This document shows, piece after piece, positions 3,481 to 4,812 of a stretch of 7,061 nt of DNA. The position numbers and the translations under genes are program-made. The stretch spans positions 1 to 7,061 of the forward strand of contig JBHLPL010000102.1 of the NCBI GenBank assembly GCA_048939465.1, given 5' to 3'. This DNA is from Promethearchaeota archaeon. GTDB taxonomy: Archaea; Asgardarchaeota; Odinarchaeia; Odinarchaeales; JBHLKK01. Position 1 is the first letter of the stretch. Each line of letters opens with the position of its first letter. Below the pieces are notes generated by a model. The model had not been told where the DNA came from, made no database searches, and worked only from the letters and a program-made list of their open reading frames with translations.

Positions 3481-4812
3481 ATGGATATGACAGAAATCGC
3501 AGAGCTTATTCAACAGGAAGATGTGAAAGAGGTAGTTCTTCAGTTTACGGACATATCTGGTATCTTGCATTCTCTTTGGGTCTCTTCTAGGCTTTTCCCG
3601 AAGATAGCCGAGGATGGTATACACGTAGATGGTTCATCCCTGGCTGGCGTGGTGGACGTCAGCAAGAGCGATTTGAAACTATTGCCGGATTTGGACACAT
3701 TCGCTATATTGCCCCCCGGAATTTTCTCTCAGAAAGTTGCAAGGGTCGTTTGTGACATTTACCATCCAGAATCAAGCAGACCTTTTGAGCTTGATGTCCG
3801 ATTCGTCCTTAGGAAAGCAATGAACGATGCTAAGAAGAATCTGGGTTCCTCTGTAGATTATTTCACTGCAAGTGAAATAGAATTCTTCTTATTTGAAAAG
3901 GAGGAGGATGGCAGTATCAGATTAGTGGACGAAGGGGGCTATTTGGCTACTCCCCCTGCGGATCGTGCCGCCAACTTAAGACTCGAAATTACCGAAACCC
4001 TGAGAAAAATGGATGTTTCCATCGAGAAACATCATCACGAAGTGCCACATGGAAAAAGCGAGCTTAATCTGCCTTACTCGCAAGCATTGAAAATGGCCGA
4101 TACCGCCTACCTAGTCAAGTTTCTCGTGAAGTTTATGGCGGCCAGACGAGGATTGATTGCCTCCTTTATGCCGAAACCTTTTGATCACGAATACGGCGCC
4201 GGTTTGCACACTCATTTAAGTTTAATGGACACTGAAAGGAATCAAAACATATTCTCCGATCCAGAAGGAAGCTATGGGCTGAGCGAAATAGCGTTAAGCT
4301 TCATGGCGGGTATCCTAGCTCACGCAAAGGCATTGGCAGGCATAACCAACCCTTCGGTCAACTCTTATAAACGGCTCGTGCCCGGTTGGGAAGCCCCTGT
4401 CTATATTTCTTGGGCTCGATACAATCGATCAGTGCTCGTCAGAATCCCCCCTGGAAAAGGAAACTCAACTCGGATGGAGTACAGACCCACAGATGGATCG
4501 TGCAATTTCTATATCGCATATGCTGCTCTTCTTTCCGCTGGACTGGACGGCATTCAAAAGAGAATGGAACCTATGGCACCGGTGGAAGAGGATATTTACA
4601 AGATGGGCGAGTCAAAACGAACTAAAAAAGGCATAGAAACGCTTCCATCGAATCTAGAGGCCGCGTTGAGAGAACTCTCCAAGGACCAGGATCTTCAAGA
4701 GAGCCTAGGAGATGCATTCCACAAGAAGTTTTTGGAACTTAAGATGAAAGAATGGAAAGATTACAGTGTCGCAGTACACGAATGGGAGAGAAAAAAGTAT
4801 TTAGATGTTTAA
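3481..4812 (+). CDS. glnA: Glutamine synthetase type I family protein (GS or gamma-glutamyl ligase), 443 aa; true start may be the ATG at 3487
   Basis: LQFTDISG, VDGSS, PDLDTF, EIEFFLF, GGY, HHEV..G..E, FMPKP..G.G.H.H.SL, NSYKRLVPGWEAP, NRS..VRIP, RMEYR, LP.NL..AL, EWERKKYL. GGAGA at 3475-3479 is 1 nt from ATG 3481 but 7 nt from ATG 3487. Several amine/glutamate-site residues deviate from true GS (see findings). Confidence 0.93.
   Translation: MDMTEIAELIQQEDVKEVVLQFTDISGILHSLWVSSRLFPKIAEDGIHVDGSSLAGVVDVSKSDLKLLPDLDTFAILPPGIFSQKVARVVCDIYHPESSRPFELDVRFVLRKAMNDAKKNLGSSVDYFTASEIEFFLFEKEEDGSIRLVDEGGYLATPPADRAANLRLEITETLRKMDVSIEKHHHEVPHGKSELNLPYSQALKMADTAYLVKFLVKFMAARRGLIASFMPKPFDHEYGAGLHTHLSLMDTERNQNIFSDPEGSYGLSEIALSFMAGILAHAKALAGITNPSVNSYKRLVPGWEAPVYISWARYNRSVLVRIPPGKGNSTRMEYRPTDGSCNFYIAYAALLSAGLDGIQKRMEPMAPVEEDIYKMGESKRTKKGIETLPSNLEAALRELSKDQDLQESLGDAFHKKFLELKMKEWKDYSVAVHEWERKKYLDV

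Follow-up and report, generated by a model that had tools for sequence, protein, structure and literature searches.

Accounts of histidine degradation usually give it a small set of endings, namely HutG, HutF with a deformylase, and FTCD. The route through HutF and N-formylglutamate deformylase, which is the Pseudomonas type, passes via an N-formyl amino acid that is then deformylated, and N-formylisoglutamine is a known spontaneous product of imidazolonepropionate decay. For glutamine synthetase (GS), the residues that bind the transition-state analogue methionine-sulfoximine-phosphate have been listed in the P. polymyxa enzyme (PMC9249791), Arg62 in B. subtilis numbering is the glutamine-feedback residue (PMC10799026), and Asp50' and the flap Glu are missing from the organic-amine glutamyl ligases (PMC11335346, PMC7948447). 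The locus described here carries a GS-like gene (GSL) that, together with an imidazolonepropionase variant (HutI*) and a formyl-removing enzyme, appears from sequence comparison to substitute, in some archaea, for the usual folate-dependent reactions that end histidine breakdown. We consider it probable that GSL belongs to a branch of the hut pathway independent of folate, which would take the place of FTCD, and that it acts there with ATP, as a dedicated enzyme, on an N-formylated intermediate of the glutamate type.

The window analysed is the entire 7,061-base contig C36 of a 1.96 Mb genome that is 91% complete. Along it run the 3' part of hutU, hutH, an ftr-like gene on the minus strand, GSL and the hutI-like gene, with the following features:

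2..532, plus strand: hutU, urocanate hydratase, 3' part (TIGR01228 and PF17392); the 5' part is on contig C40:5806-6888 and matches model positions 3-363
610..2148, plus strand: hutH, histidine ammonia-lyase (TIGR01225, 654 bits against a cut-off of 539)
2349..3254, minus strand: FtrL, divergent Ftr-family formyltransferase, below both Ftr cut-offs
3255..3480, no strand: divergent intergenic region between ftrL and GSL, a gap of 226 nt
3481..4812, plus strand: GSL, GS-like paralog of GSI-alpha fold (PF03951 and PF00120; TIGR00653, 461 bits)
3628..3630, plus strand: D50, the ammonium-binding Asp50', kept in 172/172 family members
3655..3657, plus strand: D59, replacing the glutamine-feedback Arg62 by alignment (D in 111/119)
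4054..4056, plus strand: K192, replacing the near-universal Gln of the GQxE motif (172/172, against Q in 157/157 other GS)
4192..4200, plus strand: Y238-G-A240 of the Asn loop, replacing N-G-S (Y/F in 172/172; A/C/T at 240)
4387..4392, plus strand: W303-E304, Trp preceding the kept catalytic flap Glu (both 172/172)
4874..6148, plus strand: HutI*, imidazolonepropionase variant (TIGR01224, 385 bits)

A sequence-only reading of the same DNA had described the GSL frame and its motifs, and all were recovered in place (the Lys codon at 4054, TAC/Tyr at 4192, SKSD at 3661-3672 and TGG/Trp at 4387), as were the 61 nt between the end of GSL and the hutI-like start at 4874 and the divergence from ftr. 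A promoter and terminator scan of the window gave matches at chance level only, and a search among relatives for a conserved element in the divergent spacer found none beyond the genus. Positions 6517-7059 encode the first part of a PQQ-like beta-propeller protein, which has a hydrophobic N-terminus and runs off the contig; outside the genus the gene is not a conserved neighbour of the module.

The GSL frame encodes 443 aa, and the ATG at 3487 is judged the likelier start, since GGAGA lies 7 nt upstream and the database copy has 441 aa. The protein has the beta-grasp plus catalytic domain fold of ∼445 aa and passes the GlnA equivalog cut-off (TIGR00653, 461 against 429). Its predicted structure gives a TM of ∼0.92 to GSI-alpha structures; the AlphaFold model supports the fold alone and is of low confidence at residues 232-241 and 297-304, which are active-site loops. 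The metal, ATP and phosphate ligands E132, E134, E187, E194, H243, R316, R321, R331, E333 and R335 are kept in all 172 family members, and the ammonium-site and catalytic residues D50, Y154, E187 and E304 vary little or not at all. In alignment with P. polymyxa GS, the direct glutamate ligands (E134, the G239 carbonyl and R298) are retained, as are all methionine-sulfoximine-phosphate ligands listed for that enzyme (PMC9249791). The retention of every direct glutamate ligand counts against the proposed role, as GSL may after all act on free glutamate.

The changes in GSL are concentrated in three places (Asn loop, GQxE strand and flap), with the ammonium site intact. Lys at 192, Tyr or Phe at 238 and Trp at 303 are invariant in the family (172/172), while in other GS proteins residue 192 is Gln in 157/157 and residue 238 is Asn, Pro or Ala in 155/157. 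Judged across this alignment, the three departures from GS are not chance. They stand out from a longer list of deviations that the sequence-only reading had offered as marks of specialisation, of which two do not hold: position 62, in SKSD, varies among K, E, R and Q within the family, and the region of the GF to GV change is also variable, usually with a one-residue deletion, so neither is diagnostic. The altered Asn of NGSG, on the same list, is informative in the form of the Tyr or Phe found in all members, whereas loss of the Asn alone is common in other GS-like proteins; as a stand-alone marker it was rejected, with Pro or Ala there in 37 of the 157 other GS. Two features were absent from that reading, namely the change of R62 to D59 and the corresponding remodelling of the adjacent HutI. 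Arg62 is replaced in the family mostly by Asp (111/119), F52 (B. subtilis numbering) is also replaced, and W33 and H48, near the N-domain side of the funnel, are invariant. We take K192 to lie near the alpha-amino pocket of the GS site, and a Lys together with an aromatic residue on the alpha-amino side would fit a substrate with an acylated amino group.

The GSL family takes in 119 further database clusters at 65-82% identity, with a sister group at ∼48%; no curated family or solved structure covering the clade was found. Phylogenetic placement, which the sequence-only reading had suggested, sets GSL apart: in two quick trees, with SH-aLRT support and no bootstrap, it forms its own clade (100), all K192 proteins fall together (97) and GSL does not group with the housekeeping GlnA of Bacillota and archaea. 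A second GS is encoded on contig C61 (L001:4837-6165) and groups in the same trees with other Asgard, Bacillota and haloarchaeal GSI-alpha enzymes; it has PGNG for NGSG, keeps the Gln, R62, E65 and the flap Glu, and by these sequence features is likely the housekeeping copy. The sequence-only reading had suggested looking for a separate glnA, often near glnB or amtB; neither glnB nor amtB was seen among the ORFs that neighbour the C61 copy.

The family was found in 18 of the 221 Asgard and 3 of the 151 Bathyarchaeia genomes searched. Most carriers have other GS copies, and GSL is the sole GS-family gene in G027, a closed genome, and in G037. In genus g32 it is additional to the GS paralogs common to FTCD genomes (mostly three copies against two). 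Two more GS-family genes adjoin on opposite strands in this genus (G221:C1:958623-960630; also in G061, G125, G191, G194 and G218). Bacterial relatives with K192, an aromatic residue at 238 and W303 (L118:538-1875 and L288:621-1952) lie directly behind a hydantoinase/carbamoylase-type M20 gene, with ABC transporter genes nearby and, at L118, also an enolase-family racemase-like gene. That relatives with the same signature stand beside carbamoylase-type M20 genes, outside hut, counts against the role proposed for GSL, and these loci possibly represent a second pathway using an N-acyl-glutamate-type substrate.

Of 36 distinct loci, 33 have HutI*, the partner of GSL, directly adjacent to it, and in the remaining three the sequence stops at the GS gene; the strict pairing is with HutI* rather than with hutH. 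HutI* is confined to GSL genomes (16 full copies and one cut copy among the 18 Asgard carriers; 3/3 in Thermoproteota), where it is the sole HutI in place of the canonical one, and the scores of the two forms split cleanly (E below 1e-238 against above 1e-148). The pair is retained in a Thermoprotei-type sister clade (48% identical) and in an Aminicenantes genome. Two observations weigh on the other side: the linkage could partly reflect inheritance of one gene block, and for a GS paralog of the sister clade (L289:10001-11341) there is no hutI* nearby, nor any hut gene within 10 kb in either direction.

HutI* passes the TIGR01224 cut-off (385 against 298) and keeps in 119/119 homologs what we take to be the metal ligands and the Arg and Tyr residues for the propionate tail (H84, H86, H254, D329, R93, Y107 and Y157). 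Its ring contacts are rebuilt, with Q189, W257 and S331 (S331-A-A) in 119/119 when aligned to 2bb0, at positions occupied by His, Glu/Gln and Asn in canonical HutI and where canonical Asgard HutI have GAHA and HADEI; the corresponding ring-contact residues of B. subtilis HutI are presumably H185, E/Q252 and N326. Since a rebuilt ring pocket would be needless for an unchanged HutI reaction, ring opening at C2 is favoured.

FTCD is found in 140 of 221 Asgard genomes and GSL in 18, with zero overlap, counts that are descriptive because the genomes are related and kin are not independent; Fisher values computed on such data overstate and are given no weight. In genus g32, eight genomes have GSL and seven have FTCD, again without overlap, and in family f12 FTCD occurs in 10/10 genomes of one genus and the GSL module in 4/4 of another; the split within a single genus (g32) is otherwise hard to explain. 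No hutG above the cut-off was detected in 23 GSL carriers, and hutF above the cut-off, FGase, FTCD_C (the cyclodeaminase domain) and Fhs were each not found in the five genomes tested for them. In the genome studied here (91% complete), none of FTCD_N, FTCD_C, hutG, hutF and FGase was found, and two closed relatives agree. Two candidates were considered and rejected: its own arginase-family gene, tried as HutG, is an agmatinase, and the C118 amidohydrolase, tried as HutF, belongs to the TRZ/ATZ family.

hutU was found in 20 of the 23 carriers. In G026, G076, G093 and genus g32 it is a longer, lower-scoring form with open frames of 630-710 aa; as read from these sequences, hutU is swapped in those carriers while the GSL/HutI* pair stayed. 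Several Asgard genomes of families f14, f17 and f20 have hutI with neither FTCD nor the GSL module.

In 21 loci an Ftr paralog occupies the divergent slot, and in nine an M20D amidohydrolase lies in or beside it. The genome has three Ftr copies, FtrL among them, with the canonical ftr adjoining mtd on C31; FtrL scores below both Ftr cut-offs (282 against 297 and 264 against 292.6, with 433 for the canonical copy), keeps the SGSK and YEV motifs and has gained five invariant basic residues, K43, R47, K96, K103 and K201 (17/17 against 0-1/9). The five basic residues set FtrL apart from the canonical substrate-cleft motifs of Ftr. In M20D the metal motifs are retained, as is the GTxR arginine, which in this family we take to bind a free alpha-carboxylate, and retention of that arginine argues for a GSL step before deformylation. 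From the chemistry of the two families, one of formyltransferases and the other of aminoacylase-type hydrolases, we infer that the substrate shared by FtrL and M20D would be an N-formyl amino acid. Among the ftrL-type genomes, Mch was found in 10 of 13 tested; those that gave no hit are 81-82% complete or, for a 1.3 Mb assembly, have no stated completeness. It was found in 0/9 of the M20D type and in none of 12 genomes of genus g32. The Ftr paralog thus occupies the slot in Mch-positive lineages and M20D in g32, and a swap that tracks Mch points to tetrahydromethanopterin (H4MPT) as the formyl acceptor.

In a genome of the same genus, mch and hutU share a contig, with mch ∼8 kb upstream (G001:C2:53313-54248). 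A third Ftr paralog (L296:4007-4894; G000, C2) is 35% identical to FtrL and lies in a non-C1 neighbourhood, and similar copies occur in G001, G017, G027 and G378.

In the proposed pathway, HutH and HutU would make imidazolonepropionate, as their intact genes suggest, and HutI* would open its ring in a non-canonical manner. GSL, with ATP, would activate the gamma-carboxylate of an N-formylated five-carbon intermediate to give an N-formyl-L-amino acid, whose formyl group would be transferred by FtrL to H4MPT or, in lineages without this carrier, be freed as formate by the M20D deacylase. Each substrate and product in this scheme is deduced, with linkage, FTCD exclusion, slot swap and residue signatures as the direct observations. 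The leading chemistry, put forward tentatively, is hydrolysis at C2 by HutI* to N-formylisoglutamine, from which GSL may form N-formyl-L-glutamine or N-formylglutamate; formiminoglutamate, N-formylisoglutamine and N-formylglutamine are isomers. GSL might thereby shift or remove the alpha-amide, either in an ATP-driven move to N-formylglutamine or in a phosphorolysis yielding ATP, before the Ftr paralog loads H4MPT, and both this step and the opening at C2 would then be new reactions; we hold this possibility just as tentatively, and the extended conformation of the bound glutamate chain does not favour an intramolecular amide shift. A version of the same role in which formiminoglutamate is converted to N-formylglutamine is unlikely, and still less likely are the formation of N-formylglutamine from N-formylglutamate and NH3 and, to the same degree, action on free isoglutamine after deformylation.

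The most serious competing explanation, though a rather doubtful one, is that GSL is a true glutamine synthetase without feedback, co-expressed with hut, which recaptures ammonia onto glutamate, while HutI* (perhaps through two hydrolyses) and FtrL or M20D carry the carbon via N-formylglutamate. The GlnA equivalog score, the complete set of catalytic and substrate ligands and the two genomes with GSL as their sole GS-family gene are all in keeping with this, as are the five basic residues gained by FtrL, which suit a dicarboxylate such as N-formylglutamate, and the loss of Arg62, which is also seen in an active archaeal GS (PMC10799026). However, a recapturing GS leaves unexplained the invariant K192/Y238/W303, the strict pairing with HutI*, not hutH, and why GSL is missing from each of the 140 genomes with FTCD, where the same ammonia is set free; most GSL genomes also have another GS. 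Recapture of ammonia and glutamate had been one option of the sequence-only reading, and it accounts for the kept ligands but not for the signature. Of the options in that reading, an N-substituted glutamate is the best supported, and its more general suggestion of a dedicated, non-housekeeping role agrees with the second GS on C61, the separate clade, the HutI* linkage and the FTCD exclusion.

It is very unlikely that the substrate of the module is an analogue of histidine (methylated or thio-substituted, for instance) whose released amine GSL captures. Every ring contact of HutI* is changed and related GS-fold enzymes do capture methylamine (PMC7948447), but HutU and HutH have the scores of canonical enzymes, these genomes have no HutI other than HutI*, which stands in place of the canonical form, and GSL, unlike GmaS, keeps an ammonium-type site. 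A gamma-glutamyl-amine ligase acting on histamine, tyramine, polyamines or a methanofuran-like carrier, the amine acceptor option of the sequence-only reading, is more improbable again. GS-like paralogs often ligate amines, and the replaced F52 and the invariant W33/H48 near the funnel could be read in this way; the kept D50, Y154, E187 and E304 speak against it, given that Asp50' and the flap Glu are missing from such ligases, as do scores far under the GGputSyn (NF045547, 300 against 650) and TIGR03105 (333 against 470) cut-offs, and no gamma-glutamyl hydrolase or amine oxidase was seen in the annotated neighbourhoods. That GSL is a housekeeping GlnA placed in a hut cluster by chance is scarcely credible, as the GlnA cut-off and the two relatives in which it is the sole GS are set against a C61 copy that groups with other GSI-alpha enzymes, a distribution of just 18/221 Asgard and 3/151 Bathyarchaeia genomes, and linkage conserved across phyla.

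GSL is a variant of a known enzyme family in an apparently undescribed pathway branch; a search of the full-text literature outside subscription journals returned no description of the GSL/HutI*/FtrL module and one match, to a canonical hut operon. What is new here is the residue-level case against an amine substrate, the Ftr/M20D swap that tracks Mch and the wider K192 clade. The module looks like another ending of histidine degradation, with carriers among several Asgard lineages, a part of the Bathyarchaeia and other Thermoproteota, and in at least one bacterium. If the proposed role is correct, non-methanogenic archaea would have a direct link from amino-acid fermentation to the one-carbon pathway of H4MPT, and a GS-fold enzyme with a changed acyl substrate and an intact ammonium site would be the reverse of the amine-glutamylating paralogs. 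The three genes are annotated as ordinary glnA, hutI and ftr, so that metabolic models miscount them.

Compared with known pathways, the M20D version of the module resembles the HutF/deformylase route in that an N-formyl amino acid is deformylated; that route has a canonical HutI and no GS-fold step, and its HutF and FGase were not found in the GSL genomes tested. FTCD (glutamate formiminotransferase plus cyclodeaminase), the usual route in Asgard archaea (140/221), has the same place in the pathway as the GSL module and likewise passes the C2 unit of histidine to a pterin carrier. The two share no homology and were never found together, and FTCD uses tetrahydrofolate and a formimino group and needs no ATP.

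At the level of the enzyme, GSL shares with GSI-alpha GS (P. polymyxa 7TDP, B. subtilis 4LNI, M. thermolithotrophicus 8OOL and M. shengliensis 8OOW) the two-domain fold (TM ∼0.92, 38-42% identity) and all metal, ATP, ammonium and glutamate ligands. It differs in Q194 to K, N240 to Y/F, S242 to A/C, Y303 to W, R62 to D and F52 to V/T/M, in its separate clade, and in being tied, at the loci seen, to HutI* and not to nitrogen-regulation genes. The organic-amine gamma-glutamyl ligases (PuuA, GmaS 7CQL, NpaA1/AtdA1 and IpuC) are, like GSL, GS-fold paralogs recruited into a catabolic pathway, and in them too the Asn of the Asn loop is replaced; Asp50' and the flap Glu, which they have lost, are invariant in GSL, and GSL scores much lower against these ligases.
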